A stretch of 64,000 nt of DNA from Dictyostelium discoideum (Eukaryota): the NCBI GenBank assembly GCA_000004695.1, contig CM000152.2, forward strand, positions 320,001 through 384,000, read 5' to 3'. Under the pieces are notes generated by a model. It saw nothing but the letters and a program-made list of their open reading frames with translations, ran no database searches and was not told where the DNA came from. A program made the position numbers and the translations under genes. Positions 1,235-52,027 of the stretch are shown here, in pieces (position 1 is the stretch's first letter; each line of letters opens with the position of its first letter).

Positions 1235-3318
1235 TTAATTTATTAAATTAAAAAGTATTAATGCATTTGATTTAAAATCTATTATATCTTTTGAAGAATA
1301 TTGAAAATTATTTGGAATTGGTTGAATTAATTGATCTTGTTGTTGTTGTTCTTGTTGTTGGAAATGATAAATTTCATTATTAAATTGATTTGAAAGATTA
1401 AATAATAATAACCATAAAGAATCAGGATCATTTTTTAATAAAACATCTTTCCAAATATCAATTGTAAAATTTTGAAATTGTTCAGGTTGATTTCTATTTA
1501 AATAGTAAATGGTTGTTTTAGCTATATCTATAATTTGATTTTGTTTAATTCTATTACCAGTAGAACCTTCTAATAAAATTGTTTTTAAAGTTTGTAAACA
1601 TACAAATTGAACCTTAAAAGATGGTGTATACTTTAATTTATCTTTTTTCATTTTAATTTCAATTCCTTCTTCAATAGTTTTAATTGATGAATCTATTTCA
1701 ACTATTAATGGTTTCTTTGATGTTGATGAACTATTATTAATATTTGTAGTAGTAGTATTTGGTTGTTGTTGTTGTTGTTGTTGGTATTGTTGTTTAGTTT
1801 GATTTGATTGTTCATCAATTAAAATTCTTTTAAGTATTGGCCATAATTGATCCCAAAATCTTTGAGAAATGAATTCCAATGAAAGATTTGAAATGGTTTG
1901 AATTACTTCTAATGATTTCTTTGCAATGATTCTATCAGATTCTGAAACTCTTTTAACTAATGAATCCCATACTAAATGAATTAATGGGAATAATGCAACT
2001 TTTTCAATACTTTTATCTGAATTTGTTTTATTTTGTTGTTGTTGTTGTTTTTGTTGTTGTTGTTGTTGTTCATGATCATCTTCATTTATAATTTCTTTTT
2101 GTTCATTATCATCTTCATCTTCAACTCCACCATATTTTCTAGTACCAGTTGCAACAATAACTAAACCCATTTCAATAATATCAATAGTTGTCATTTTAAT
2201 GAATTTATTTTTTGAACTAATGAAATGAATTGATTTTTTAATAATTTCTTGTGCCATTTGTCTTTGAATTTCTGTAGTTTCAATGAAATTTGGTATACCC
2301 AATTGTTGTGGTGTAGTTTCAATTTTCAATAAATCAATAAGTGGTGGTTGTTGTTGTTGTTGTTTCTTTAAATTATTATTTTTAAAATCTAATTGATTCA
2401 ATTGTTCAATTTTATCATCTTTTTTATAATGATGAGATAAGAAAAATTCTTTAATATCTTGAATTGATTGTTTTTCTTTTTCTTCTTCTTCTTCTTCTTT
2501 TTCTTTATTTTCTTCTTCTTTTTCCTCTTTTTGTTGTTGTTGTTGTAATTTTCTTTTTTCTTTAATTTCATTTAATTTTAATAAAATTTGTTGATATTGT
2601 AATTGATGTTTTGAATTATTATATAAAACACAAACTATATTTGAAAGGATAGAAATGAATATTTGAATATTTTTTGAATTTTCAATTGCTAAATCCAATG
2701 AATTTAAAATCATTCTAATTGTATCTGAAAGAAAAGGAAGAAAACCTAAACCTGTAATATTTAAAATACCTTTGAAAATAGTTGGTGTATTTGGGAATGA
2801 ATCTAAATATTTCATATGACTTTCAATTGTATCCAATAAATAATCTGAATTCTTATAAATTATATCTTGAATTGATTCATATTCAAATGAATTTTGAATT
2901 TCATTTAATGTTTTTTTACATTGATTAAAAATTAATCCATTATTATTACCACTACCACTACCACTACCACTACTACTATCTAAACTTGATAAACCAAATT
3001 TCTCTAATAATTGATAAATAATTTTACTTAAAAATATTTGACGATATTTCTTTGTTTGAAAATTAGCAACTATTTTAGTTAAAACACCAATTGATTCTAA
3101 TACTAATGATATTGTAACAGTATTATCGAAATAAATCTCTAACTGATTATCATTATCTTTATTTGAAATTGATAATAATAAAGTATTATCATTATTATTA
3201 TTATTGATTTTATTTGAATAAATTAAATGTTGATCTCTTGAAATTACTAAATTTAATAAATTTGGTGACATAACTTCTTCTAAAATATATTGAACTGTTG
3301 AAAAATCCATTACTGAAC

Positions 3319-3378
<60 letters not shown>

Positions 3379-3606
3379 TACTACCAATTAAAAGATGATT
3401 TAAACAAAACATAATCTCTTTTCTCTTTGGCGAACTTGATAATAAACTATTTGAAATTAAAACATCAATCCATTCTCTAATATCACAAAGTTTACCAATT
3501 AATTCAATAATTTTAATTAAATAATTCTCACTATCTCTACTATAAAAATTTATAAATGGTAATGATAAATTTGAAAAGGATTTAATTGATCTTTTTTGAC
3601 TTTTTT
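1235..3606 (-). CDS. exon 2 of the same gene; joined across a 96-bp intron (3607..3702, GTATGT...TCATTCAG, phase 1) giving a continuous ...DNPF|EKSQKRSIKSF... frame into the 725-aa track ORF
   Basis: Hand translation shows the frame is open from the acceptor at 3606 through the annotated M at 3412 to the stop at 1235; donor, acceptor and phase are all consistent. Confidence 0.6.
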
Positions 3607-3702
3607 CTGAATGATTTTTGTTTTAAATATAAATAAAAAAATAAATGAATTTTAGAATTAAATATTAAATAATTAAAATATTAAATAATGATATATACAT
3701 AC

Positions 3703-5752
<2,050 letters not shown>

Positions 5753-7169: not shown

Positions 7170-7347
7170 CTTTTTAATAAAATTAATTTTTTTTTTTTTT
7201 TTTTACGTTAAAAGTCGGGCATGCGTGTGCCTTTTGATCTGCCACAAAAAGAAGAATTTTTGTTGTCACTTTTTTACTTAAAAAAAATAAAAAAATAAAA
7301 AAATAAAAAAATCTAAAAATAAAAATCTTTTTTTTTTTATTTTTTTT

Positions 7348-9843
7348 TTATTTTTTTAATTTAATTAATTTTTCAGTTTGATGAAGTAATTTAAAATTTA
7401 ATTTAATTAATAAAAGTAATTGAGAGAAACCATTTTGGTTGAAAAATATTTTTGGAGAATTTGAAAATGTATAACGAGAAGCTTCATCTAAAATTTTATC
7501 GGTATAATAGATTGGAATTAAAGGTTTACCTCTATTTTCAGCCAATGAAATTTCATCACGAATTAAAGGTGTAAATGCAACCTCTGATATAATTACCACA
7601 ACTACCCAACTTGAGATAACTTTTTTCTCTCTTGGTACAATTGTGATACCATTCTCTTTAAAGAAATCGAATAATGGTTTAAAAGTTTTTTCACTATTTG
7701 GATCGAATGATATGAAAATTGATTCAGAACCAGAGATTGAATGAGGTATAGTATCAACATCATGTTTATTATCACTATCATCTTCATCCTCATTATCTCC
7801 ATCACCTGATTTTGAACTTTTTGAATCTTTAGTATTTAACATATTATAAACACCTTCTAATAAAACACTGAAAGAGTCATTATAGATTTCATATGATGAG
7901 AAATCGACCAATTGTGAACGGAAAATACAAGATTCCAAAGTTGGGTCGGTGATTTTAGTTTTTTCAGCCCAAATTGAAACCATTGGTAATTTTGAAAGAA
8001 AAGTTAACAATAGATTCACTTGATAGCTGAGGGTTAGGGATTTAGAAGAGACAAAGAATATATAACCATAGCAATTACGATTTTCATTTGATTCTGAACT
8101 AATTAAACAAGCTGTTATTAAATTGTCTTCTAATGAATACTTCAACCTATTGGCCAAGTCTACATATTCACTAGTGTAAACTATACCAATATCATACAAC
8201 TTATTTTGTTTCTTTATTTCAAATGCGACATCCTTATCCAATAAATCAAATGGTCTTTCATCTTGATAGTTTCTTTGTTTATGATTTGCACCTGCTTTAA
8301 TCGCTATCTCAAATTCCTTTATTGATAACTTTTTTGCGAAAAAATGTAAACAATTATCACCTGTTATCTTATTAGTGAAATTAATATCTGATAGTAGATT
8401 AGAAGCAACCGATTTTAAAGGCCATTTTAAGATTTCTGCATTGTAAAAGTATGGTGGTAAATTTTCTTTGTTTAAAGTTTTAAGATTTGGTGCTAAAATT
8501 TCTTCAACATTGAAAAATGTGACATCACGATAACCCAATCGTTTTTTGGCTATAATATGTAGCAAACTATCTCCATTACTATTCCTATAGGTAACTGCTG
8601 ATTTGGTATCACAATGATACCACATGTTTTTATAATGCTCCATTTTACCAGTCCACAATAATTGAGCCAATAACTCTTGTGGATTATCATAAAGTAATGC
8701 ACTATGATAAGAACCTGTTGAAACTTGACTTGGAAAACCAATGATCTCCTTACAATTTGAAATTGGTACAGTATCAGCATAAATCTCCTCCTCTGTCGCA
8801 GATTGACCATATCTATTCCAACCAAATGCAAAAACTTGATTATTTTGACTTCTCGCCAAAACATGTTTACCACAATCTGATGAACAATCAAAATCAATAA
8901 AACCACCACTATTACCATTTGCTGCTGCTGTCGTTGTTGTTGTGGTGGTGGTGGTGGTTGTAGTTGTAGCTTCAACTAAACATTTTGGAACTGATGAAGA
9001 ATATTCGTCAACAAATGTACCCCAACACCAAAAACTACCATTTTCACCAACTGCGCATGTGTAAGTACCACCACATTGAATGGTGGCGAATTTTTGAAAT
9101 GATTTAACTTTAATTGGGATTGGTAGTGATTTGTTGAATGATGAGCCATCGCCTAACTGATACTCTTCGTTCATACCCCATGTGTAGAGCTCGCCTTTTA
9201 GATCGATCGCACCCATGTGTCTATCGCCAATGGCGAGGGTTTTGATACCAATATTATCAAAGAAAACACAACGAAATGGTGTGTATTGGTCAGTTTGGTT
9301 ATTAATCCCCAACTGACCGTACTTGTTGTATCCCCATGTATACAACTTACGCTGAACGGTATCTTTACTAATGGCAGCAGACGACGCACCACCCGCATAC
9401 ACACTTTCAATGTTACTCAAGCCCGGCACGAGTTTGGGCTGATAGATAGCCAGGGTCTTCCCTTGACCCAAACGGCCCAGTGATGAACTGCCCCATGTCA
9501 AAACTTGCGATGAGGAAGTCAACGCTATTGAATGATCATTCCCGCATTGTAAATCTCTAATTGAGTGATTCATCTCCACTAGTGTTGGCTCTGATCTATC
9601 TTCAGTATCGCCTGTACCCAATTTACCAAAACTACCATTACCAAACATATATAAATTGCCTGTTCCAGTAATGAATCCTGTATGTTGCACACCACATGAC
9701 ACCTTTTTAACATTATAATAATTTGGTAATAAAGTTGGTATACCTGTATAATTATCTTGATTATAAATAAACTCTTTATCAATTTCAATACCAATTTGAC
9801 CATGAGAATTCTTACCAAATACAATCAATGCCCCAAATGCCAT
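7348..9843 (-). CDS. 831-aa multidomain protein: N-terminal RCC1-like beta-propeller repeats, two central ankyrin repeats, C-terminal approx. 250 aa with TIR-like motifs (...ESIFISFD..., ...SSWVVVVIISE...RDEISLAE...LIPIYY)
   Basis: Single uninterrupted ORF. Repeated G-x-N-x-x-GQLG / CGxxHT motifs typical of RCC1 blades. GDSLLHIIAKK and GDNCLHFFAKK...AIKAGANHKQRN ankyrin signatures. C-terminal region matches the TIR box1 (F/I-x-I/F-S-F/Y) and the hydrophobic strand-Ser-x-Trp/Glu-...-IPIFY-like pattern. Confidence 0.7.
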   Translation of the reverse strand: MAFGALIVFGKNSHGQIGIEIDKEFIYNQDNYTGIPTLLPNYYNVKKVSCGVQHTGFITGTGNLYMFGNGSFGKLGTGDTEDRSEPTLVEMNHSIRDLQCGNDHSIALTSSSQVLTWGSSSLGRLGQGKTLAIYQPKLVPGLSNIESVYAGGASSAAISKDTVQRKLYTWGYNKYGQLGINNQTDQYTPFRCVFFDNIGIKTLAIGDRHMGAIDLKGELYTWGMNEEYQLGDGSSFNKSLPIPIKVKSFQKFATIQCGGTYTCAVGENGSFWCWGTFVDEYSSSVPKCLVEATTTTTTTTTTTTTAAANGNSGGFIDFDCSSDCGKHVLARSQNNQVFAFGWNRYGQSATEEEIYADTVPISNCKEIIGFPSQVSTGSYHSALLYDNPQELLAQLLWTGKMEHYKNMWYHCDTKSAVTYRNSNGDSLLHIIAKKRLGYRDVTFFNVEEILAPNLKTLNKENLPPYFYNAEILKWPLKSVASNLLSDINFTNKITGDNCLHFFAKKLSIKEFEIAIKAGANHKQRNYQDERPFDLLDKDVAFEIKKQNKLYDIGIVYTSEYVDLANRLKYSLEDNLITACLISSESNENRNCYGYIFFVSSKSLTLSYQVNLLLTFLSKLPMVSIWAEKTKITDPTLESCIFRSQLVDFSSYEIYNDSFSVLLEGVYNMLNTKDSKSSKSGDGDNEDEDDSDNKHDVDTIPHSISGSESIFISFDPNSEKTFKPLFDFFKENGITIVPREKKVISSWVVVVIISEVAFTPLIRDEISLAENRGKPLIPIYYTDKILDEASRYTFSNSPKIFFNQNGFSQLLLLIKLNFKLLHQTEKLIKLKK

Positions 9844-10249: not shown

Positions 10250-11290
10250 ATGAGCGGGAAAATCACAGATTTCTTTGAGAAAAAGACAACAACAACTATA
10301 GATGAAGCAGAAAATAAAGATAATGATAAAGAATTAACTTCTACCACTACCACCACCACAACAACCTCCACCACCTCAAAAAAAAAAGTAGCTGCAGCAC
10401 CAAAAAAAAAAGCAGCTGTAGCATCTAAAAAAAGAAAACATGAATCGTCAGATGAAGAAACAGATAAAGAAGAACAACAAAACGATGATGATGACGATGG
10501 TGAAGAAAAAGTCGAAAATAATAATAATAATAAAAAATTAAAAAATGAAGAGAAATCTGAAGAAATTAATTCGACAATAACAGATAACAATTATTATGAT
10601 GATATTGAAAATTATTTTACAGATAAACAATGGAAAGAAGCATTGAGTGGTGAATTTGGTAAAGCATATTTTAAGAAAATGATAACACAATTAAATAAAC
10701 GTTATAGTTCAAAAGAGAAACCAATTTATCCACCAAAGAATGAGATTTTCTCTGCATTTAATTACGCACATTTGGAGGATGTCAAGGTGGTTATCATTGG
10801 TCAAGATCCGTACCATGGCAAGGGTCAAGCTCATGGCTTGAGTTTCTCGGTCAAGAAGGGGGTATCACCACCACCATCATTGATTAATATCTACAAAGAG
10901 TTGGAGACTGATATCGAGGGCTTTAAAAGACCTTTGAAAAACGGCTTCTTAGAGCCATGGGCTAGACAGGGTGTGTTCTTACTTAACGCTGTCTTGACAG
11001 TGGAAGAGGCAACACCAAATTCTCACAAAGATTTCGGTTGGGCTGATTTCACTGATGCCGTATTAAAAATACTAAGTAAACAAGATCAACCAATCGTTTT
11101 CATTTTGTGGGGTGGCTTTGCTCAAAAGAAGGAAAAACTATTCACAAATAAAAATCATTTGGTTTTAAAGAGTGGTCATCCTTCACCATTATCAATTAAA
11201 CATTTCATTGGTTGTAAACATTTCTCAAAATCAAATGAATTTTTAAAATCAAAAGGTATTGAAGAAATTGATTGGAAGATTACAGAATAA
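10250..11290 (+). CDS. ung: uracil-DNA glycosylase (family 1 UNG) with an acidic/Lys-rich N-terminal extension
   Basis: Catalytic water-activating loop GQDPYH, Leu-intercalation loop HPSPLS, plus LLLN..L and WGG..A motifs in the correct order; single exon. Confidence 0.9.
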   Translation: MSGKITDFFEKKTTTTIDEAENKDNDKELTSTTTTTTTTSTTSKKKVAAAPKKKAAVASKKRKHESSDEETDKEEQQNDDDDDGEEKVENNNNNKKLKNEEKSEEINSTITDNNYYDDIENYFTDKQWKEALSGEFGKAYFKKMITQLNKRYSSKEKPIYPPKNEIFSAFNYAHLEDVKVVIIGQDPYHGKGQAHGLSFSVKKGVSPPPSLINIYKELETDIEGFKRPLKNGFLEPWARQGVFLLNAVLTVEEATPNSHKDFGWADFTDAVLKILSKQDQPIVFILWGGFAQKKEKLFTNKNHLVLKSGHPSPLSIKHFIGCKHFSKSNEFLKSKGIEEIDWKITE

Positions 11291-12482: not shown

Positions 12483-14836
12483 CATTTGATTTAAATGGTA
12501 AAAAACCTACCAAAAGTAATGTTGTAAGATTATTATTAAATAGAACTAATTCTGGAAGCAATTTATTATCAAAAAGAAGAACTTCAGAGACAGGAGATGA
12601 TGATAGTAATTCTAGTGTTGGTTTATTGAATAACAGTACTGGTAGTATAGGTAAAATGAATACACCAGAATCATCACCCAAATCATCATATATTCTAAGT
12701 AGTAGTATTGGTAGTGGTGGTAGTGGTGGTGGAGGTGGTAGTAGTGGTAGTCTTCAAAATTTAGATAGTGCTAGTAATAATAGTAGTGGCCCAAGGAGTA
12801 GAAGTGGTAGTCTTGGTAAAAATAATAGTAGCCAACAAAATAATAATAATTTAATATTAGACCCAAATTTTAATAATATTGATAAATCATTATGGACTGT
12901 TAGATCATTAAAAGAACATTCAAATCTTGTTGATATTATGGAAAGAATTAAACCAGCAAGTAGAGCCATTTCATTTGGTCAAATTTATGCAAGTGAAGAA
13001 ACTCAATTTGAATTTGATCCAGTTATTGGTCGTGATAATATTTTACAATTAATTTTACAACATTTACAATTTGAAGGTTTAATGGACTCTAGAAAAATTT
13101 TAGAAGAGGAAGCTAAAATTCAATATCCAGAATATACATTCAATGAATCAAGATTAGTCACCTTATTACGTGCTGTCATAAAAGATTCTGATAAAGTTTT
13201 CGATCTAACTCTAAATGATAGAGATAAAGATTCTCAACAAAAATTAGAAGAACATTTAGCATTCCTTGGTTTATTCAAAGATGAATCTCAAACTAATATG
13301 GTTGAAGATGTAAATATCTATGATGAACCTGAAAATTCAAATATTATATATGTAGATGAAAAAGATAATGATAAACCTTCAAAAGATTCACCAACAACAG
13401 CAACAACAACAACGACAGCAACAACAATTGCACCAAGTACAAGTATTAATAATTTATCAAGTTTATCAGTTAGTATAAGTTCAAATAATATAAATAATAA
13501 TAATAATAATAATAATAATATAAATAATTTAAATAGTACACAATTAATTAGTAATACACAACAACAACAAGCAACACCAAATACACCACCACAAGGTTTA
13601 AAATCAACACAATCAATTACAGGATCAACTGGTACATTAGGACCACAAGTTAAAGCAGCATCATTAAATAAATTAGTAATTTTATTAACACCAGAGAATA
13701 ATCATGATTTAGAGTATACAAAGACATTTTTATTAATGTATCAATCATTTACAACACCAGAGATATTATTACAGAAATTGATTCAACGTTATCATGTACC
13801 ACAAAAGGCAGGTCAATCAGTTGCAGAATGGAGACAACGTTCAACTCATATTCAACTTCGTGTACTAAATGTATTGAAAACTTGGATCAAAGATTATTTC
13901 TCTGATTTCTCTGAAAAGTTAATACTTGCCATTAAATCATTATTGGAATCAATGAGACAAACTGGTAATATGTCTTATGCAAAGGTGATTTCCGATGCCT
14001 TGAATTCAGGTTTAAAGAAAAGTGGTCGTAATAACACGGTTTTCACAGTTTCAGCACCCGAGCCTAAAGTACCTAAAAACATTTGGTCTCACAATTTAGA
14101 CATTTTCTCTGTGGATGAAGAGGAGATCTCTAGACAATTGACCTTGATGGACTTTGAAATCTTTTCAAATATTAAATCAACTGAACTTTTAAATCAGTGT
14201 TGGAATAAACCAAAACTACGTCACCGTTCTCCAAATGTTTTAGAATTAATTGGTCGTTTCAATGAAATCTCTCAATGGACTGCCACTTCGATTCTCTCAT
14301 GGCCCAAGGTTAAAGACAGAGCTAGAATCATGGGTAAATTCATAAAGATCGCTGAATACTGTATGAAGCATTTAAATAATTTCAATACTTCAATGGCAAT
14401 TCTTTCCGGTTTAAACGCTTCCTCAGTGCACAGATTAAAATTCACAAAAGAGGAATTACCAAGACACACTCAACAAGTTTACACAGAGTTACAATTTCAT
14501 CTAAGTTCAGCCCAAGCTTACAAAGAGTATCGTGCTTTATTAGCCAAGGCTAATCCACCATGTTTACCTTATCTTGGTGTTTATTTAACAGATTTAACAT
14601 TCTTTGAAGAAGGTAATCCCGATTTCATTCAAGGTTTTATCAATTTCGGTAAAAGAAAGTTAATCTATGGTTCAATCTCAAATGTTCAAAGTTTTCAAAA
14701 TACAAAATATAATTTACAACCTGTTTATCAAATTGCAAAATTATTAAAAGGTTTTAAACTTTTAGAAGAAAATGAACTTTATACAAGATCAATGTCTTTT
14801 GAACCAAGAAATAAAGAAAGAAGTGAAATTTTATAA
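12483..14836 (+). CDS. Ras guanine-nucleotide exchange factor main exon: RasGEF N-terminal (REM) domain followed by a CDC25-homology catalytic domain
   Basis: The frame is open upstream of the track M (12626) back to acceptor ATTATTAG at 12481-12482. REM-like region LVILLTPENN...TFLLMYQSFTTPEILLQKLIQRY. CDC25 motifs LTLMDFEIFSNIK...ELLNQCW, ...NPPCLPYLGVYLTDLTFFEEGNPDF. Confidence 0.85.
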
Positions 14837-15396: not shown

Positions 15397-16191
15397 TTTT
15401 TTATTTTTTATTATTATCTGTTTAAAATTTTAATATATTTAAAATGTTTTTTTAAATTTTTTTTTTTCGTTCTTATACTTTTTTTTTTTTCCTTTTTTAT
15501 TAAATGAAAATTTAGTAAAAATTAAAATTAAAATTAAAATTTAATAAAAATCCTTTTTTTGGAAATTTCACCCACATTCTAATATTTTCATAAAAAATAT
15601 TTTCACAATTTAAAAGACACACAAAGAAAGAAACTTTTGGAAATTTGAAAAAAAAAAAAAAAAATAAAAAAAATAAAAAAATAAAAAAAAAATAAAAAAG
15701 TTAATTTTAATATTATAATAAACAATGATACCATATTATTGTAATAATTATAAAATTTGAAATAAATAATATTTTTTTTTAAAATAATATATTATTTTTT
15801 TTTTATTTTAATTTAATATTTTCAGTTTTCTATTTTTATTGTTATTATTATTATTTTTTTTTTTAAAGAAATTTAAAGTTACCAAAATTAGGGAATTTAA
15901 ATTAATCCTGATGAATTGTAAACATTACTTTGATATTAAAATTTTTTTATTATTAACAAAATTGATAAATGAGTGATGGATTATTTTTTATAAGGGAATA
16001 ATTTTTTCATCTTGAATATTAACTGAGAATCTTATTTCTAATTCACCTCTTTCATTCAAAAAATCTTGTAAAACTTTTCTTGATTCTGTAAAACTATTAC
16101 CCAACCCAAATTTCTCGATTCTTCGAAATCTATTAGAAGCAATATTAGTATTAAACATCTTTAAATAAATTTATAATAAAGAGAATATACG

Positions 16192-17273
16192 CTATTTACC
16201 TTGATGATATGGTCCAAATGATATCACAGTGGCAGTTGAATCATCTGGTGGAATTAAAGAAAATGAAAACATATATTTTAAGAGTATATCGGATCTTGTT
16301 TTTCTCATTAAATATATACCAAGCTTTCCTTTATTTCCGGTATTGCCTTTTGGATAAATCCTAATATTAAATTTGTGAGATCCCACTTTAAAAACATTTG
16401 ATTCTTTATATTTTTCATGGGTATATAATGCACTAACACTTCTATAGTCAGGAATAATCCATTTGTTACTGTATTCCATCTCTTTAAAACCATTCTGTTT
16501 CAAAACATTTATTTCCTTTTTCAATTGAGTATAATCACAAAGGAGGATGTTAAGTTTTTGATTAATTTCTTCCATTTTTTTTTCTTGATTTAAAAAACTT
16601 TGATTATCTTTTTTTATTATTTCATTTTGATTCATTAGTTTTGTGACTGAATGTTCTAAAGAGTGAATTTTCATTTTTGATCTAGGAAAAAGTTTTCCAC
16701 ATAAAAATTCTTGACAAATAATATTAATATCAGACAATCATCATTTATATGTTTAGTTTTTGTATCTCTTTTAATCATAATTTTACAATGAGAGCATTCT
16801 ATTAAATATTTTGTGCAATGTGTTTTATGATGATCAGATAATGACGATCTTTGAATATTACTATTACAATATACACATTTTGAATATACTTTTGAACATT
16901 CATTTTGATGTTTGTCTGAATCCTTACTAAAAAACTTAATTAAACATAAATCACATTGCAATATTCTTGATTCACAAACTTTATAATGATTCTCTAATTC
17001 ACTAAATTTCATTACACCATGATTACATAGATCTTGATGTAATGTTTGATTGCTATTATTAATAGCAGGTAAACCCAACATGTTGAGTCTAAATACATTT
17101 TCGTTTGAATTTGGACAAAAAACCAATCTGTCTTTTAACCAATTAGAATATTCATTTTCCAAAAATCTATTTCTTGATAATTCTGAAATAGAAGAAATTG
17201 GTGTTTTACAAGTCATACACTTTTTATTTGTACTTAAATATCTTTCCCAACAACTTCTACAAGCTAAATGACC
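16192..17273 (-). CDS. TRAF-family paralog A, exon 2 (rest of RING, three TRAF-type zinc fingers, coiled coil, C-terminal MATH domain). A 1-bp deletion relative to copy B near 16735-16745 splits the frame, so this may be a pseudogene or a sequence error
   Basis: Acceptor AAAAAG|GGTCAT at 17274-17275. Track ORFs 16671..17216 and 16192..16737 are the two halves in different frames. Alignment to copy B shows 38 nt versus 39 nt between identical flanks. Confidence 0.55.
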
Positions 17274-17348
17274 CTTTTTCCAAAATTATAAATATTATAT
17301 GGTTAGAATAAATAATGTTAGATTATTAATAATATAATTTATATTTAC

Positions 17349-17549
17349 TTCTTTGCATTGAAGAGCTTTTGGTTCACTTCCAATAAATAATTCTAAACTA
17401 CAAATAATACATTCATATTTTTCTTCATCTGAATCAAATAAAATATCTTTTATTTCATATTTAATTGGAATTGCTGTTTGTGTAATTCTTGTTGGAGATG
17501 TTGCGTTGTTTACATGATTTAAAATACCGAACATTTTTTTTAAAGACAT
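17349..17549 (-). CDS. TRAF-family paralog A, exon 1 (N-terminal half of a C3HC4 RING finger: ...YECIICSLELFIGSEPKALQCKE|)
   Basis: ATG at 17549; GTAAAT donor at 17348; phase 0; near-identical to copy B exon 1. Confidence 0.6.
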
Positions 17550-17837
17550 TAAAAGAACAAATATAATAAAAAAGAAAATTCTAAGACATTAAAAGAACAA
17601 AAATAAAAAAAAAAGAAAAAAAAGAAATATAATAGGAAATGGCAGTTTGTGTTTTTTAAAAAATTTTTTTTTTTAATTACGAAAATAAATTTGATATTTG
17701 ATTTATTTATTATTGATTATCTTGATCAAAATTAAATTAACAAATAATAAATCTTTAAAAATTTAATTGATTAGACCATGTAAAAAAATTAGTATAATAA
17801 AAAAAAAATTAAGATAAAATATTATATTTAATTTTTT

Positions 17838-17860
17838 ATGTGAACATACCATTTTTTTTT
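17838..17860. other. orphan second copy of the metallothionein-like gene 5' end (AAAATG|GTATGTTCACATAAAAA on the minus strand) with no Cys-rich exon downstream; marks the duplication junction
   Basis: Identical 22-nt motif at 15381-15402 where it is the real start codon and donor; region 17550-17830 contains no Cys-rich frame. Confidence 0.5.
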
Positions 17861-18476
17861 TTTAATTTTTTTTATTATCTTTTGTAATATCTTTTAATTG
17901 TTTTTAAAAAATTTTTTTATTCTACTTGAAGTATACTTTTTTTAATTTTTTTATTCCACTTGAAGTATACTTTTTTTAATTTTTTTTTTTTTTTATGAAG
18001 TTTGATATAATATTATAATAAACAAAGATTATTGTAATATTATAAAATTTGAAATAAATAATTTTTTTTTTTTTAAATCAATATATTGTTTTTTATTTTA
18101 ATTTAATATATTTCATTTTATTTTTATTACTATTATTTTTTTCAATCAAATTTAAAGTTACCAAGATAGAGAGTTCGAATTAATCCTGATGAATTATAAA
18201 CATTAGTTTTATATTAAATTTTTTTTATTATTAACAAGACTAATATATGAGCGATCTATTAATTTTTATAAGGGAATAATTTTTTCATCTTGAATAGTAA
18301 TTGAGAAACTTATTTCTAATTCACCTTTTTCATTCAAAAAATCTTTTAAAACCTTTCTTGAATCTGTAAATACATTAGTACCACAACTCAAACTTCTAGA
18401 TTCTTCGAAATCTATTAGAAGCAATATTAGTACTTATTAACTTCTTTAAATAAATTTAAAATAAAGAGAATATAAA

Positions 18477-19556
18477 CTATTTACCTCTATGGATTGGTCC
18501 TAATGATACTTTTGTAGCAGTTGAATCTTCTGGTGGAAGTAAAGAAAATGAAAACATATATTTTAAGAGTATACCATATCTTGGTTTCCTTTCTAAAAAT
18601 ACACCAAACTTTCCTTGTTTTCCGGCTTGACCATTTGGATAAATCTTAATATAAAATGTGTGGGATCCCACTTGAAAATCATTTGAATTTTTACTCTTTT
18701 TATGAGTATATAAAGCATTAAAACTTCTATATTCAGGAATAATCCATTTGTTACTGTATACCATCTCTTTAAAACTGTTCTGTTTCAAAACAGCTATTTC
18801 ATTTTTCAATTGAATATAATTATTAAGGAGGTTGTTAAGTTTTAGTTTAATTTCTTCGATTTTTTTTTCTTGATCCAAATTTTGATTATCTTTTTTTATT
18901 ATTTCATTTTGATTCATTAGTTTTGTGACTGAATGTTCTAAAGAATGAATTTGCATTTTTGATCTAGTAAAACGTTTGCCACATAAATATTCCGAACAAG
19001 TAATCATAATTTCTTCACAATCATCATTTATATGTTTTGTTATTGTATCTCTTTTAATCATAATTTTACAATGAGGGCATTCTATTAAATATTTTGTGCA
19101 ATGTGTTTTATGATGATCAGATAATGATGATCTTAGAATATTACTATTACAAAATTCACATTTTGAATATACTTTTGAACATTCATTTTGATGTTTGTCT
19201 GAATCCTTACTACAAAATTTAATTAAACATAAATTACATTGTAATATTCTTGATTCACAAGCTTTATAATGATTCTGTAATTCACTAAATTTCATTGCAC
19301 CATGATTACATAGATCTTGATGTAATGTTTGATTGCTATTATTAATAGCAGGTAAACCCGACATATTGAGTCTAAATACATTTTCGTTTGAATTTGGACA
19401 AAAAACTAGTCTATCGTTTAACCAATTAGAATATTCTTTTTCCAAGTATCTATTTCTTGATAATTCTGAAATTGAAGAAATTGGTGTTTTACAAGTCATA
19501 CACTGTTTATTTGTGCTTAGATATCTTTCCCAACAACGTCTACAAGCTAAATGACC
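18477..19556 (-). CDS. TRAF-family paralog B, exon 2 (intact). Product of about 424 aa with RING (C3HC4, split by the intron), TRAF zinc fingers, coiled coil and MATH/TRAF-C domain
   Basis: GHLACRRCWERYLSTNKQCMTC completes the RING. Repeated C-x-C...H...C zinc-finger units. C-terminal YSNKWIIPEYRSF...FYIKIYPNG...FGVFLE MATH-like strands. Acceptor TAAAG|GGTCAT. Confidence 0.75.
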   Translation of the reverse strand, partial: GHLACRRCWERYLSTNKQCMTCKTPISSISELSRNRYLEKEYSNWLNDRLVFCPNSNENVFRLNMSGLPAINNSNQTLHQDLCNHGAMKFSELQNHYKACESRILQCNLCLIKFCSKDSDKHQNECSKVYSKCEFCNSNILRSSLSDHHKTHCTKYLIECPHCKIMIKRDTITKHINDDCEEIMITCSEYLCGKRFTRSKMQIHSLEHSVTKLMNQNEIIKKDNQNLDQEKKIEEIKLKLNNLLNNYIQLKNEIAVLKQNSFKEMVYSNKWIIPEYRSFNALYTHKKSKNSNDFQVGSHTFYIKIYPNGQAGKQGKFGVFLERKPRYGILLKYMFSFSLLPPEDSTATKVSLGPIHRGK

Positions 19557-23670: not shown

Positions 23671-26448
23671 TTAATTTAAAATACCTCTACCAAAATATTC
23701 AGAAACAGTAGTGAAACCATCAGGAGAACTTCTTAATAATTTAAAGAATTGATCATGTTGATTGGCGGAATCAGCTTGTGATCTTTTAATCTCTTGAATT
23801 CTTTTATTAGCACCAGCACAAGAAGGACATTCTCTTTCATTCTCACCGAGACATCTTTGATGGAAAGAATGTTGACATAAAAAGTGAACACTTGGTAAAT
23901 CCAAAGCCAATAGACAAGCGATACATTTAGTTTGTTGGAAAATTTTAGAATTTGTACGAAGTTCGTTGATTTCATGTCTCATCTTTTCAGTCTCATCGGC
24001 GTATTGTCTGATTTGAGTGTAATCCTTATCGATTTGTTGAGTTTCTTGAGACAATCTTCTAGAGATATAATCTTTGATGACGGCCAAAGTGGTATTCTTA
24101 TTTTGTGATAGGATTTGTATTACCAAGAGTGGTGGAATGAGATTCTCCTTATCGATGTTGGTCAACACCTCGATGATCTCATCTTGACAATCCTGTTTAT
24201 TGGTTGAAAAGAATGACAATGCTCTCACCCAAAGGTTTGGATCTTTTACACCATATCTCTTGCAAGCTTTGATCAAGCCATCGTAATCATTATTCTCCAT
24301 ATGGTACTCGATGATCTCATTGAATAACTCTAACTTTTCATATAAATACAATACACCCTCCTTCCAATTATGAACTTGTACTAAAATCAATGCATGATCT
24401 TGATCAAATTTTGATTTTGGATTCGTTAAAAATTCATATGCTTTCGCTTTTCTCTTTATTCTCTCATCATCAGTTTGATTGACATCATCTCTCAAATATA
24501 ACTCTAACAATGTATTATAAATTAATGATGATTCATTATTACCTTGTTGTACCATATATTCTAAAAATTTAACTAACCAATCTGCTTGTGATACAAAAAT
24601 ATGAATAAATTCTTCTGGTGCTGATTTTTGTTTAAATCCAATATTATTATTATTATTATTATTATTATTTTGATTATTATTATTACTATTATTATTTTGA
24701 TTATTATTATTTGTTACATTTGTTACAGTTGTTGTTGTTGTTGTTTGATTACTAATTGTTAAACCATTTAAATTTAAAGCTGTTAAAGAATCAAAAGCTT
24801 GAACTGGTTGATAATTTGTACATAATTTCATTAAGACACCAGTAGTTTCTTCAGGAATTTCAGAGACTAATTGTTTACCATATTTTTTAAGATTTTTATC
24901 AGCTTCTTCCCAATCAAGTGTTTGAATGTAATCTAAAGCTTTTCTATATTCATTGAGATCCTCCAAGAGAATTTTAAGATACCAATCGTGACGACTATGT
25001 TTTGATGCTAAAAAGAGTGCACGATCGAAATAACCACCTTGACGACAAACTTTAATTGCTGTCTCGACATCGAATGTACCATTGTCTGTCATAATGAAAT
25101 GATCGAGTTTCTTTACATCCTTTAATTTGGTATAACAATTCAAGAGTAGTGTAGTGTGGTTGGCTGTGGCTAAATTCTTCTCATGCAATGCTTGAATGTA
25201 TGATGTAAGATTATGAATTCTTTGAGCGTCCAAGAACTTTCTAATGACATAAGATGGCTCCAACTGACCAATCGTGCAAAGGTATTGGGTGATGGCGCCG
25301 TCGTAGTCGCCCTTGGCATACAACCTGTCGCCATACTCCCTATAGACGTCTGCAATGGCACTATTGTCATAATGCTGTGACTTTGCTAAATCGATAGCCA
25401 CTTGATATGAATGCTTCTTAAACAAGGTTTCCAACTTGGTTTGTGTGTCTTTCTCCTCCAATTGAAACACCTTACCATCGGCACCAAATATGAAAATTGA
25501 GCCCCACTCACTGCAAATATGAGACACTGTATCGAACTTCTCTGTGAAACCAATATATTTATTCTTTAAATCATAGATATTCAATACATTGTTTTTCGTG
25601 TTTTGCACCATAACCGATGGCGACCCAATACTACCTGTCTGACTACCCAACCCACCTATGCTATTCTGTCCGCCTACCACAGCACCTGGGAACAAGGCAT
25701 TGGTGTTGTTAGTGTCATATCCAATCACTACCAAATAGGAACGGAACCACAGCACTTTGGTCTTCACACCTGTGAAACCAAAACACGGTCCTCTTCCATC
25801 CACATTATAGAAATAAATTGCATCTGATCTTGCTATAATTGGCGACCCATCGTCACTCATTAAAAACGAGCCGATGTCACCCCCCTCATCGTCTATTATC
25901 GTCTCTTGATCTTTATGTGCTGTATGATAGGTTATAACATGTGTTGTTGTCACTACAAACAACACTGCACCCGCACTCGCACTCTGTTGACTCTTTGTTG
26001 GGAAAAACCCTAACCCTGTAATTGGCGAATCGTTTGGTACTTTGATAATCTTTTGTTTAATAACTTTATCTCTAAATATATCTGCTCTAATTATAATGAT
26101 TTCACCATTTGCTAAACCAACGATAATCTGTGACAAATCTTCCAACAATGTGAAACATGTTACTGTAACTGATTTCTCTAATTTAATAGATCTAACACAA
26201 ATTGGTTGTTCATTCTTATCAGTTTTATCAAGATTCCAAATTTTTAAGATTGCTGCACCACCAATATCATCATGACCAACTGAAGAAAGGAAATTTCTCT
26301 CCTTTAATTGATAAATTAATGATACTGATTGTTGATATGCTTGAAATGATGATATTCCAAATTCTCTATCTACAAAATTAATAAAACCTTCTGCATCACC
26401 AATAATTAAACTACCACGACCACTAGTTGTACATGTAATTGATAATTT
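23671..26448 (-). CDS. vps11: Vps11 (HOPS/CORVET core subunit) exon 2: beta-propeller, clathrin-heavy-chain-like repeats, C-terminal RING-H2
   Basis: C-terminus CIACLLALDLPSVHFLCQHSFHQRCL...CPSC...FTTVSEYFGRGILN closely parallels human VPS11 (LPSVHFLCGHSFHQHCF...CPTC...FSVIADYFGRGVFN). Also YVIRKFLDAQRIHNLTSYIQALH and TTLLLNCYTKLKD match. Confidence 0.85.
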   Translation of the reverse strand, partial: KLSITCTTSGRGSLIIGDAEGFINFVDREFGISSFQAYQQSVSLIYQLKERNFLSSVGHDDIGGAAILKIWNLDKTDKNEQPICVRSIKLEKSVTVTCFTLLEDLSQIIVGLANGEIIIIRADIFRDKVIKQKIIKVPNDSPITGLGFFPTKSQQSASAGAVLFVVTTTHVITYHTAHKDQETIIDDEGGDIGSFLMSDDGSPIIARSDAIYFYNVDGRGPCFGFTGVKTKVLWFRSYLVVIGYDTNNTNALFPGAVVGGQNSIGGLGSQTGSIGSPSVMVQNTKNNVLNIYDLKNKYIGFTEKFDTVSHICSEWGSIFIFGADGKVFQLEEKDTQTKLETLFKKHSYQVAIDLAKSQHYDNSAIADVYREYGDRLYAKGDYDGAITQYLCTIGQLEPSYVIRKFLDAQRIHNLTSYIQALHEKNLATANHTTLLLNCYTKLKDVKKLDHFIMTDNGTFDVETAIKVCRQGGYFDRALFLASKHSRHDWYLKILLEDLNEYRKALDYIQTLDWEEADKNLKKYGKQLVSEIPEETTGVLMKLCTNYQPVQAFDSLTALNLNGLTISNQTTTTTTVTNVTNNNNQNNNSNNNNQNNNNNNNNNIGFKQKSAPEEFIHIFVSQADWLVKFLEYMVQQGNNESSLIYNTLLELYLRDDVNQTDDERIKRKAKAYEFLTNPKSKFDQDHALILVQVHNWKEGVLYLYEKLELFNEIIEYHMENNDYDGLIKACKRYGVKDPNLWVRALSFFSTNKQDCQDEIIEVLTNIDKENLIPPLLVIQILSQNKNTTLAVIKDYISRRLSQETQQIDKDYTQIRQYADETEKMRHEINELRTNSKIFQQTKCIACLLALDLPSVHFLCQHSFHQRCLGENERECPSCAGANKRIQEIKRSQADSANQHDQFFKLLRSSPDGFTTVSEYFGRGILN

Positions 26449-27204: not shown

Positions 27205-29089
<1,885 letters not shown>

Positions 29090-29184: not shown

Positions 29185-32100
29185 TTAGCATTAGATTCAC
29201 AAGGTTTATATGTTGGAGATCAAAATGCAATGAAAGCAGCAGGACATGAATTAAAAGGTTTAATGAGTTATTATAATTGTAGAGTTGAAGGTTTACATCA
29301 TCCATTAATGGCATTAATTGATTATAGAGGATATCGTTTAGTTGCAATGTCACTATTACCAATTAATTCAGATACGATTGTTTATGGAAGTAGTGATGGT
29401 GGTATATCAGTTCATAACTCTGATGAGGATTTCAATCAAAAGATGATAGAATCTGCGAAAATATTGAATATTAAAGGTCATATGGTAGGAAAAGATGAGC
29501 AGAAACTTTTGTATTCATGTGGTGACATTGAGGGACATATCGGATCCGATAGTAAGAGGTATCTATTGGATTTCGCTAGAGTGTTCCCACCACAGATGAA
29601 ACTATTCGATAAAGGACCACCAACTCATCTATTCGAACTCATTAGACCCGAACTTGTAAAATCAAACTCTGTACCATTATCATCGGATGCTTTAACGGGT
29701 TGGGGTAAATTCGACTCGCTGGCATTGGAGCATAATAATCAAGTGAAGGAAGCATCGTTCAGATTGTTTCTAAAGGTTATACCAGAGCTTGCACATTATT
29801 TGAATAATTTGGATAAGAGAGAGATTCATCTAACACAGGAACTTCACAGGGTCGGTGTAAATTGTAGACATATGGGTTTGGTTAGAAGATATGTAAAGAA
29901 TAAATATGTAAGAAAGATACTGTTGGATGAGATTATGGCAAGAACTATGAAATCAGAGATGATGCAATTGTTTAGAAGTAAGATGAAGACTGCGGACACT
30001 CCATCTGAAGAGCCTTTCAAAGAGGTGGTGGTACAATATTTGAATGCTCTCTTCAAGTATGAGGATTCTGTCACTACACCAGGTTGTAAAGTTTGGCCAC
30101 GTTCCCTAAGAAAATCAATTGAAAAGAAATTCTTTGGAACTTTTCAAATGAATGATACCAACTCTAGTGTGATCACTTTTGAGAAGATTCAAGGCAAACG
30201 TTTTGATGAGGATGCCATAAAGAGATTTATAAAGGGTGCAAGTTTCACCATTCAAGAGGAGATGTTTGTAGATAGTGTAGATATACCAAATGTAATGAAA
30301 CGTTTCAATCAATTGACTGGTGTCGGGTTAACTAGTAGAGCATTGAGAGAGATCACCAAACATGATGGTGTTAGATTGGTACAATCCGATGTAAAGAGAA
30401 TGAAAGCCAAAGTTAAGGCACATCATTTGGTGGAGTTTGCCGAAGGTATGGTTCTTTGGGATGAAGCAAAGAAGGAGAAATCAAGAGAAAAGATAGAGGG
30501 TGCTTTCTGTCCTTGTCCAGTGACATTGATCAATGGTGATGCTGCCGATAAAATCACAGATCGTCTCTTTGGCTTGGCAGATGACCATTTTCGTAGCGCA
30601 TTATCAGTTTCACCGCATTCAGCAGAGGTCACTGCAAATTGGGCAATGATGTTGATGGAAAGAGCAAGAATGTCAAGAGAATGTGTGCCACAAGAGGCGG
30701 ATCTCTATTATAATGCCGCCGAGGAAAAGGTTAGATCATGTTTGGCCGATGGTGGTAAACCAAAGATTGCATTGGAGAATGTATTATTAGAGTATTCGGA
30801 ATTCCTTTGTATTTGGGGTACTACCACCGACCAAATCTTGGATCTCAATGAAGCCAATGGGCTAAAGAGTAAAGTATTTAGTAGAGCAAGTAAAAAGTTG
30901 AATGAATGTGTCAAATTGAATCCATCAAAGTTTGCATTGGTTTTACAAAAATCGAAAATCATCGATAACCTATTTCATCAATCATCATTCTTTAAACAAT
31001 CTGCAGCAGTCTATGCAGCGGTTTGTACCATTTGCGATTGTTTGATACAATCATTCCTAAATATACCTCCACAATATTATAGAGAGATTGCAGAGGTGAT
31101 CATTCAAAATCTCAATCCAATGGATTTAATGAAATCGGATCCAGAGGCAATAGGTAATCCAACGATCAATGGTGAGAATATGTTTGATAAAATTAAAGCC
31201 GTCAATGATATACCATTGAAAAATGTACTCTCCACTAGAAAGGATGAGAATGAAATCAATTACCTCTTGGAACATAATCCATTAGAAATATTGAAAGCGG
31301 AAATGGGTGTAATGTATCTACGTTATGGTTACACCTCTCATGTCTATGGTATTCAATGTTCAAAGAGACAACACACCAAAATGGCATCAATAAAGTTATT
31401 CAATAAAACAGGCGGACTCTTTCAACGTGGTATCGATATGGATTCCTATAATAAGGATTTCATGTTGGATCATATTAAAAAGTTTACCTCGTCAAGTCAG
31501 TTTGTTGAATTCTATCAATCAATCATTGGTTGTCCTTGTATTATGGAATTTGTAAAGGATAGACTATCGAGAATCGCTCATATGTCTCTAAAAGATTGTA
31601 ATCATCTCTCTATAGAATTTGTTGAGGGTGTAATTGAACTATCACATCGTGTTAGAATGTTGGTATTGGATGGTTGTACTCAGATCACCAATGATACCAT
31701 CAAATTAATCATTAGAAAGTTACCACATTTAGAAACACTATCTTTAGCTGGTTGTCAAAATATTTCAACCATTATACCCAATTCAATGTTGAAAGAGTTT
31801 CAACAAGATAAACAAAAACAACAACAACAACATTTACAACAACAACAACAGCAACAACAACAAGATCAAAAAGAAAATAAAATTTGTTCATTATTTGATA
31901 AAAATTGTCATTCAAGTAGTAGTAGTGGTAATAGTAGCAGTACAAGTATTAATAGTAGTACAAATATTGGTGGTAATCAATTTGGTGGTGGTCTTACAAC
32001 TAGTGGTGGTACTTTAGGTGGTGGTGGTGGTAGTAGTGGTAGTTTATCAAATTCAAGTTCACCTTCAAATTCATTTTTATCAACTTCAAATTCTTCAAAT

Positions 32101-51716: not shown

Positions 51717-52027
51717 TTAATAATAATATTAATAATAATATTAATATTAATAATAATAATAACAACAACAACGACAACAACAATAATGAAAATACTGCTT
51801 TTAATAGTAGTGATTTAGAAGATTTGGATAATGAAAATATAAATGAAGATGATGAAAGTGATGAAGAAGGAGCTGAATTTCAAGCCGAAATTGACGAAAG
51901 TGAAAATAGCTTTCAATTTAATCAAGATGAAGATGAAAATGAAGATGAAGATGATCATCATTATGGTGAAGAGAGTGATGACGATGAATACAGGGAATTA
52001 AGAATGGAATTTGAAGAGAGTGATATT
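51416..52027 (+). CDS. probable continuation of the RING-protein gene in the same frame after the microsatellite: His11 run, Pro/Gln-rich segment, poly-N, strongly acidic C-terminal region; ends at a GTAAGT donor (52028)
   Basis: The frame is open from 51416 (HFHHHHHHHHHHHPPMLPSF...) to ...EFEESDI|GTAAGT. Composition too C-rich for a Dictyostelium promoter, so most likely coding and part of the upstream gene. Confidence 0.45.

Follow-up and report, generated by a model that had tools for sequence, protein, structure and literature searches.

An RCC1-like, ankyrin and tandem TIR protein of Dictyostelium discoideum, probably TirE

The window analysed here is a stretch of 64,000 nucleotides of Dictyostelium discoideum DNA (assembly GCA_000004695.1, contig CM000152.2, positions 320,001 to 384,000). 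On its minus strand, at positions 7348-9843, it carries a single gene whose product most probably unites in one chain a UVR8/HERC-type propeller, a degenerate ankyrin region, a first TIR domain (TIR1) with Asn610 in the catalytic position, a linker and a second TIR domain (TIR2) with E764, and which is probably the protein known as TirE. TIR domains are a core immune module common to bacteria, plants and animals. Both C-terminal modules are predicted TIR domains, because relatives of the same architecture reach the Pfam TIR_2 threshold, the family profiles match solved TIRs and confident models match TIR folds. The features discussed below are listed here in the order of the protein (aa, amino acids).

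7348..9843, minus strand: complete single-exon coding sequence with stop codon at 7348-7350, 831 aa (list of open reading frames, comparison of termini with orthologues, gene call in GCA_054883475.1)
8677..9843, minus strand: RCC1-like beta-propeller, aa 1-389 (Pfam WD40_RLD, RCC1 and RCC1_2)
8896..8976, minus strand: low-complexity insert in the propeller, aa 290-316 (Thr12 at 293-304, then AAANGNSGG)
8203..8676, minus strand: degenerate ankyrin-repeat region, aa 390-547 (alignment to canonical Ank of relatives, and family profile)
7828..8202, minus strand: predicted TIR domain 1, aa 548-672 (betaA DIGIVY, betaC YIFFVS, betaD VSIW, betaE QLVDFS)
8014..8016, minus strand: Asn610 codon in TIR1, at the catalytic-Glu position of TIRs that cleave nicotinamide adenine dinucleotide (NAD+; NADase TIRs), from alignments
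7726..7827, minus strand: acidic, Ser-rich linker between TIR1 and TIR2, aa 673-706 (predicted local distance difference test score, pLDDT, below 50 in the model tail; 18-35% identity among orthologues)
7351..7725, minus strand: predicted TIR domain 2, aa 707-831 (betaA SIFISF, betaC WVVVVII, alphaC PLIRDEISLAEN, betaD LIPIYY, long alphaE)
7552..7554, minus strand: Glu764 codon in TIR2, matching the catalytic Glu of Cat1 and RPP1 in alignments
7537..7542, minus strand: Ala768-Glu769 codons in alphaC of TIR2, invariant in 26/26 aligned family members

Tandem TIR domains

The relatives of the protein supply a link to known TIR domains. Pfam TIR_2 is matched by 35 of the 44 relatives scanned (best 2.8e-53), Ank by 28 and RCC1 by 18. 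The protein of Soliformovum (P0008) and a further relative (P0009) each possess two above-threshold TIR_2 stretches (71, 56 bits), aligned to modules 1 and 2 of the D. discoideum protein, together with canonical ankyrin repeats. When the modules were compared singly using phmmer, aa 550-688 aligned with residues 429-572 of P0008, spanning a full-length TIR_2 match at 431-551, and the second module aligned with residues 616-712.

Profiles built from the family were compared with the sequences of the PDB. That of module 2 matched TIR chains exclusively at E<=1, led by Cat1 (5e-6), RPP1 (~6e-4) and MyD88 (~2e-3) and followed by SARM1/TIR-1, AbTIR, Toll-like receptors (TLRs) and plant TNLs. Module 1 gave BtTir as its best match (4e-4), then AbTir-type TIRs, TLR6, TRR-2 and MyD88; two non-TIR chains appeared, both near E=1. 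Compared with each other by hhalign, the two profiles aligned over 124 columns with 98.8% probability (E 1.2e-16), and at the level of sequence the TIR1 and TIR2 modules are homologous to each other.

AlphaFold2 models of the separate modules were built on the family alignments and submitted to Foldseek for a fold search against the PDB. Structure prediction of the C-terminal part, which had been proposed as a check, returned confident TIR folds for both modules. Module 1 (pLDDT 88.6, predicted template-modelling score, pTM, 0.81) consists of five strands and five helices in the order betaA-alphaA to betaE-alphaE, and module 2 (pLDDT 90.9, pTM 0.84) ends in a long alphaE helix, aa 803-830. The fold is flavodoxin-like beta/alpha and its best superposition is on solved TIRs. 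For module 1 the best nine matches were all TIR (TLR15, BtpA, MAL, SARM1, MyD88, RPS4), with SARM1 among the top five and REC/FleQ domains lower in the list. For module 2 the SARM1 TIR came first, followed by Bacillus cereus TIR, MAL, TIR-STING, Cat1 and MyD88. The linker that joins the two modules is probably disordered, judging by the model.

Several results weigh against this assignment and against the ankyrin region described below. The whole protein matches neither a TIR nor an Ank family in Pfam, even at E<=10. No TIR match emerged when Pfam was run on the C-terminal 284 aa or on module 1, and the last 128 aa alone reached TIR_2 at E=0.015 with 16.2 bits, below the cutoff of 28. The direct Pfam check suggested with the original prediction therefore fell short on the protein's own sequence; read as a test, the lack of a significant TIR match to a hidden Markov model would wrongly reject the domain, and for this reason deeper evidence was needed. 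In the Foldseek list of module 2, nucleoside 2'-deoxyribosyltransferase (NDT), DNPH1 and MilB are interleaved with the TIRs and score about as well, and the template-modelling scores of the fold searches are moderate, 0.55-0.63.

NDT-like folds are known to be structurally akin to TIR domains. These structural matches, the receiver-like (REC/FleQ) entries for TIR1 and the sub-threshold TIR_2 score would all suit C-terminal modules of another flavodoxin-like fold, NDT/DNPH1-like or receiver-like, whose likeness to TIR is superficial. We hold this to be extremely improbable: NDT-like structures were never matched by the sequence profiles, which comes close to a refutation. NDT, DNPH1 and REC were accordingly rejected as candidates, the profiles matching almost only TIR. 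The TIR-like C-terminal region of the original prediction is thus upheld by the TIR_2 matches of the relatives, the family profiles and the structure models, and the weaker module suspected upstream of it proved to be real, namely TIR1 at aa 548-672.

Propeller and ankyrin region

The RCC1-type propeller that had been read from the sequence received direct support from Pfam, with matches to WD40_RLD (3.5e-65, 221 bits, cutoff 150), RCC1 (1.6e-57, 192 bits, in six stretches) and RCC1_2 (2e-31, 107 bits). Seven blade motifs of the type G-x-x-G-Q/K/R-L-G can be read in it. Its nearest solved relatives are UVR8 (2e-58), HERC1/2 (1e-43 to 6e-38) and RPGR (5e-38), all of which outrank RCC1 (2.6e-25); the domain is not nearest to RCC1/SRM1, as RCC1 proper would be. 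From these comparisons the propeller is classed as a UVR8/HERC-type RCC1-like domain. The insert at aa 290-316 shows 0-4% identity in the seven dictyostelid orthologues and, since all seven lack it, the Thr12 tract is to all appearances a species-specific low-complexity expansion within a folded domain.

Between the propeller and TIR1 lie about three putative, degenerate ankyrin repeats, with cores GDSLLHIIAKK (from aa 424), GDNCLHFFAKK (from aa 495) and then IKAGANHKQRNYQDERPFDLL. The ankyrin repeats of the original prediction, which Pfam does not report directly, were recovered by two other routes, alignment to distant orthologues and profile matches to ankyrin structures. Thus aa 390-547 align to the Pfam-positive canonical Ank repeats of P0008 and P0009. 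The family profile of the region, which includes the canonical repeats of these two distant members, matched 444 PDB sequences at E<=0.1 (best 8.8e-43), and all 60 of the 60 listed were ankyrin-repeat proteins. Without a profile, the single sequence matched multi-ankyrin proteins at 8e-13 to 1e-9 in an exhaustive HMMER search of the whole library. A PDB search with aa 390-831 as a single sequence gave weak matches (E 0.07-2) which were ankyrin proteins throughout, and no TIR.

Catalytic residues and BB loop

The two TIR modules differ in the residue that serves NAD+ cleavage elsewhere. At the Asn610 column of TIR1, where AbTir/BtTir-type TIRs have Glu, the dictyostelid orthologues have N, A, D or S, and Glu occurs in 2/21 aligned members. 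TIR1 is, by the usual criterion, a predicted catalytically dead domain, because Asn610 occupies the catalytic-Glu column. Its betaD-alphaD-betaE block (IW-EK...LES-IYR-QLVDFS) is almost invariant, and W625, E637, Q644 and D647 are fully invariant in the family.

The counterpart of Glu764 of TIR2 in the alignments is the Glu of WCWDEL in Cat1 and of WCLDEL in RPP1. Within the family this position is E in 9/26 members and Q in 14/26, Gln being found in most of the distant relatives, and Glu is kept in all six dictyostelid orthologues that have an intact TIR2. Four residues before it, the Trp of the WxxxE motif is replaced by Leu760; L, V, Q, K or R stands there in the family. A catalytic Glu aligned with that of NADase TIRs, which the original prediction had asked for, was consequently found in one module and missed in the other: Glu764 of TIR2 is so aligned, Asn610 takes its place in TIR1, and the upstream Trp is Leu760.

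In known NADase TIRs, access to the active site is controlled by the BB loop, which also takes part in assembly. In both modules the dictyostelid proteins have a betaB-alphaB segment that lacks 10-19 of the residues present in the distant relatives; in the models betaB and alphaB are joined by just 2-3 residues, and alphaB is vestigial. The BB loop is thus predicted to be nearly lost in both TIRs of dictyostelids. Among the features that mark the NAD+-cleaving subclass, the catalytic Glu is present in TIR2 (E764) and absent from TIR1 (Asn610), the Trp of WxxxE is absent, and neither module has a BB loop of normal length.

Gene model

The claim of an 831-aa open reading frame (ORF) at 7348-9843 was correct. 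In the ORF list it lies on the minus strand, begins with ATG and occupies a single exon; both termini of the protein align with those of its orthologues, and the public, chromosome-scale NCBI assembly GCA_054883475.1 carries an identical single-exon 831-aa gene with the same neighbours. The window runs collinear with that locus; over 21 kb the identity is 99.6%, the differences being 4 substitutions and 12 insertions or deletions, so that the two represent one species in different strains or assemblies. The motifs quoted earlier are all there, DIGIVY at aa 551-556, YIFFVSS at about aa 593-600, SIFISF at aa 708-713 and WVVVVIIS at aa 746-753, and RDEISLAEN occupies aa 762-770. The IPIYY that had been called terminal is likewise present, at aa 776-780, but is followed by another 51 residues and makes up strand betaD of TIR2.

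Relatives and ancestry

With aa 390-831 as query, exhaustive HMMER searching brought up 53 relatives. A word-indexed homologue search with the same segment gave no match, not even to the close orthologues, and the exact sequence is absent from that collection. The seven best relatives are proteins of ~800 aa with the same layout, one of them with a long N-terminal extension. Five of the seven were looked up and belong to D. purpureum, Polysphondylium violaceum, Tieghemostelium lacteum, Heterostelium album and Cavenderia fasciculata; they are annotated as 'RCC1-like' or 'hypothetical' only, and each dictyostelid species looked up has a single orthologue. The closest is that of D. purpureum, with 63% identity over aa 390-831 and 76% in TIR2. 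Among dictyostelids the proportion of invariant columns is 22% in TIR1, 14-18% in the propeller and 6% in the ankyrin region. By this comparison the TIR modules are the most conserved parts of the protein, and purifying selection on the TIR pair is evident in the alignment.

The C. fasciculata orthologue (XP_004359795, P0007) diverges and ends shortly into TIR2, at aa ~690-736. From its sequence this would be either a faulty gene model or a loss of the second TIR in that lineage.

More distant proteins of the same layout were found in Soliformovum irregulare, Balamuthia mandrillaris, Pelomyxa schiedti and MMETSP transcriptomes. In S. irregulare EP01119_P020010, B. mandrillaris KAL6079294 and P. 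schiedti KAH3732658 and KAH3756238 the order of domains is the same as here. The alignable part of these amoebozoan RCC1-Ank-TIR_2-TIR_2 proteins begins in the last ankyrin repeats (~aa 490-510) and extends to the C-terminus, at phmmer E-values of 2e-20 (Soliformovum) to 1e-5. Their Ank repeats pass the Pfam threshold, whereas those of the present protein are degenerate; in Soliformovum and Pelomyxa two TIR_2 stretches also pass, whereas here they fall below it. The Soliformovum, Balamuthia and Pelomyxa proteins also have a full-length betaB-alphaB/BB-loop segment, in contrast to the shortened one of the dictyostelid proteins. The distant relatives continue the C-terminal helix as a coiled-coil-like tail, and in Soliformovum a coiled-coil extension follows TIR2.

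Among oomycetes there are related Ank-TIR proteins (the Aphanomyces euteiches KAF0745439 family, Plasmopara halstedii XP_024583368 and Lagenidium giganteum DAZ99117), in which ankyrin repeats precede modules related to TIR1 and TIR2 and which share an RDQLAFAE(D/N) motif with the family. The Aphanomyces member, the only oomycete protein scanned individually, has no RCC1 propeller, and the oomycete proteins often have many more ankyrin repeats. From these alignments we assign the D. discoideum protein to a putative, vertically inherited, pan-amoebozoan RCC1-Ank-TIR-TIR family.

Probable identity with TirE

A preprint of May 2026 (bioRxiv 10.64898/2026.04.30.722052; PMC13142454) describes five TIR proteins in D. 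discoideum. One of these, TirE (DDB_G0278125), is said there to consist of RCC1 repeats and two diverged tandem TIRs missed by Pfam. The make-up is the same as that found here, and the two are probably the same protein. The ORF is very likely to be that of TirE, to judge by the matching description and by indirect evidence, namely the presence of the exact ORF on the public chromosome-scale record and the single orthologue in each dictyostelid species looked up, the nearest being that of D. purpureum. The original prediction had not recognised the architecture from described amoebozoan TIR proteins, a statement overtaken by the naming of TirE (PMC13142454). The protein and its RCC1 and two-TIR make-up were thus already reported in the 2026 preprint.

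For TirE, PMC13142454 gives weak predicted dimerisation with the TIR domains of TirBCD (AlphaFold scores), and its main text contains no assay of the protein. The word 'ankyrin' does not occur in that text, which treats amoebozoan history for TirBCD only. Beyond the passages of the preprint consulted, the present analysis adds the degenerate ankyrin module, vertical descent across Amoebozoa (other lineages having the domains in canonical form), the loss of the BB loop in both TIRs of dictyostelids, the N610/E764 asymmetry and the invariant A768-E769.

The other TIR proteins of D. discoideum are TirA and TirB/C/D, whereas the TirE family is old and vertically inherited in Amoebozoa. Published work links TirA with defence against bacteria and credits TirC with potent NADase activity. 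The 2026 preprint attributes TirB/C/D to a recent bacterial transfer, relates them to TIR-STING and gives them neither RCC1 nor Ank domains. In contrast to this TIR-STING relation, the best PDB sequence matches of TirE are Cat1, RPP1 and MyD88 for TIR2 and BtTir/AbTir for TIR1. The link to sentinel cells and immunity that had been drawn for the present protein is an analogy with TirA only. A clustering of dictyostelid transcriptomes (PMC8923023) groups DDB_G0278125, as an uncharacterised RCC1 protein, with RanA, RanB and RanBP1 in a co-expression cluster of six genes, and the protein was proposed there as a candidate guanine nucleotide exchange factor (GEF) for Ran.

Possible function

In the arrangement that we favour, the propeller and the ankyrin region would act as a binding platform for a partner or ligand, or would direct the protein to its place in the cell, and the output module would be the conserved tandem TIR pair, signalling by TIR-TIR assembly. 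We lean slightly towards a TIR pair that is mainly non-enzymatic and adaptor-like, on the grounds that Gln fills the catalytic position in most members, that the WxxxE motif lacks its Trp and that little is left of either BB loop. In NADase TIRs the active site arises at the interface between two TIR domains, and TIR2 might instead be an active NAD+-cleaving effector, SARM1- or TirC-like, restrained by the propeller and ankyrin region until a signal arrives, with the dead TIR1 completing a composite site within the one chain. This we consider possible, if rather unlikely. A chain with one dead and one Glu-bearing TIR would fit such an asymmetric pair; E764 occupies the place of the catalytic Glu in Cat1 and RPP1 and is found in 6/6 dictyostelid orthologues with an intact TIR2, a domain 76% identical to that of D. 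purpureum, and the SARM1 TIR is the top Foldseek match. The strict retention of Glu764 in dictyostelids argues for catalysis in that lineage and so against a purely adaptor-like role. Opposed to an enzyme are Leu760 in place of the WxxxE Trp, a BB loop that is almost gone, the Gln that most family members have at 764 whereas A768-E769 is invariant, and the weak dimerisation with TirBCD TIRs predicted in PMC13142454.

SARM1, the animal ARM-SAM-TIR NAD+ hydrolase, is built like the present protein in having an N-terminal repeat region followed by a C-terminal TIR. It differs in its SAM oligomerisation domains, which are lacking here, and in its single TIR, where the present protein has two. The present protein also departs from it in having Leu for Trp at four residues ahead of the Glu and almost no BB loop. 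The spacing from Glu764 to betaD presumably fits E642 of SARM1 as well.

Most RCC1-like domains are interaction platforms, not Ran GEFs. A protein that is mainly a regulator of the Ran pathway, as GEF or Ran-binding protein, acting through its propeller and using its TIR-like modules for structure or oligomerisation only, would be in keeping with the co-expression of DDB_G0278125 with RanA, RanB and RanBP1 and its candidacy as a Ran GEF (PMC8923023). Co-expression is the sole basis of that proposal, which we regard as improbable: the propeller is nearer to UVR8, HERC1/2 and RPGR (2e-58 to 6e-38) than to RCC1/SRM1 (~1e-25), the TIR modules rather than the propeller are most conserved, and the oomycete relative scanned (Aphanomyces) retains Ank-TIR without an RCC1 domain. 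A canonical Ran GEF was down-weighted on the first of these grounds.

A bolder proposal, to which we give as little credence, is that TirE may be an ancient, vertically inherited amoebozoan protein with a single-chain asymmetric TIR pair that processes NAD+ or generates a nucleotide signal without a BB loop, switched on by an RCC1-like/ankyrin sensor connected with the Ran system or with vacuoles that contain bacteria. If true, its mode of activation would be distinct from that of SARM1, plant TNLs and bacterial TIRs, which is driven by oligomerisation.

Genomic neighbourhood

The neighbours of the TIR gene encode TTI1, a uracil-DNA glycosylase and a RasGEF, and offer no functional clue. On the minus strand, the ORFs at 1235-3412 and 3665-5752 correspond to the C-terminal and N-terminal halves of a homologue of TELO2-interacting protein 1 (TTI1). 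The public assembly joins the two halves as one gene of 1473 aa, and for this reason the 252-bp gap between them (3413-3664) probably holds an intron. The uracil-DNA glycosylase gene (10250-11290, plus strand), with a long low-complexity N-terminal extension, is divergent from the TIR gene and 406 bp away from it. It is followed by the RasGEF gene (12626-14836, plus strand), whose ORF starts at TTG and must therefore have an upstream exon; the public call is 824 aa.

A small cluster of MATH / TRAF-type zinc-finger genes lies at ~16.2-19.8 kb on the minus strand (positions 15882-19520 of the public locus, L001), ~6-10 kb from the TIR gene. Because Dictyostelium possesses a great many TRAF-like genes, their proximity to the TIR gene is probably a coincidence, although in animals TRAFs work downstream of TIR signalling.

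The GC content of the window is about 20-25%, within a range of ~16-38%, its AT-richness being expected for Dictyostelium. The stretches 24001-26000, 30001-32000 and 46001-48000 have a GC content of 0.35-0.38, as against ~0.16-0.30 in the rest of the window, and are presumably long coding exons. The DNA 3' of the 831-aa ORF is AT-rich and non-coding. Within this otherwise A/T-only intergenic DNA, a GC-richer island occurs at 7195-7275 on the minus strand (GTGACAAC...GGCACACGCATGCCCGAC); it had no Rfam match and its predicted fold was at the level of shuffled sequence (z=0.3). A scan of the whole window for RNA genes found no Rfam family at the gathering threshold and no tRNAs. A segment resembling a simple repeat in the TTI1 region of the public locus (L001 3835-4009) matches 27367-27811 and 51623-51765 with 91-97% identity in many shifted registers, which suggests shared trinucleotide or low-complexity coding repeats.

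Significance

Neither the TIR nor the ankyrin modules of this protein are picked up by standard Pfam annotation, and the public records of its orthologues read just 'RCC1-like' or 'hypothetical'. PMC13142454 counts five TIR proteins in Dictyostelium, of which TirE is the only one not recently imported from bacteria. With a dead TIR and a Glu-bearing TIR, both without a BB loop, it provides a natural test of the features required for assembly as opposed to catalysis. It belongs to an old amoebozoan family, represented in Dictyostelia, Soliformovum, Balamuthia and Pelomyxa and with relatives in oomycetes, which could reveal the role of TIR domains in early eukaryotic phagocytes.

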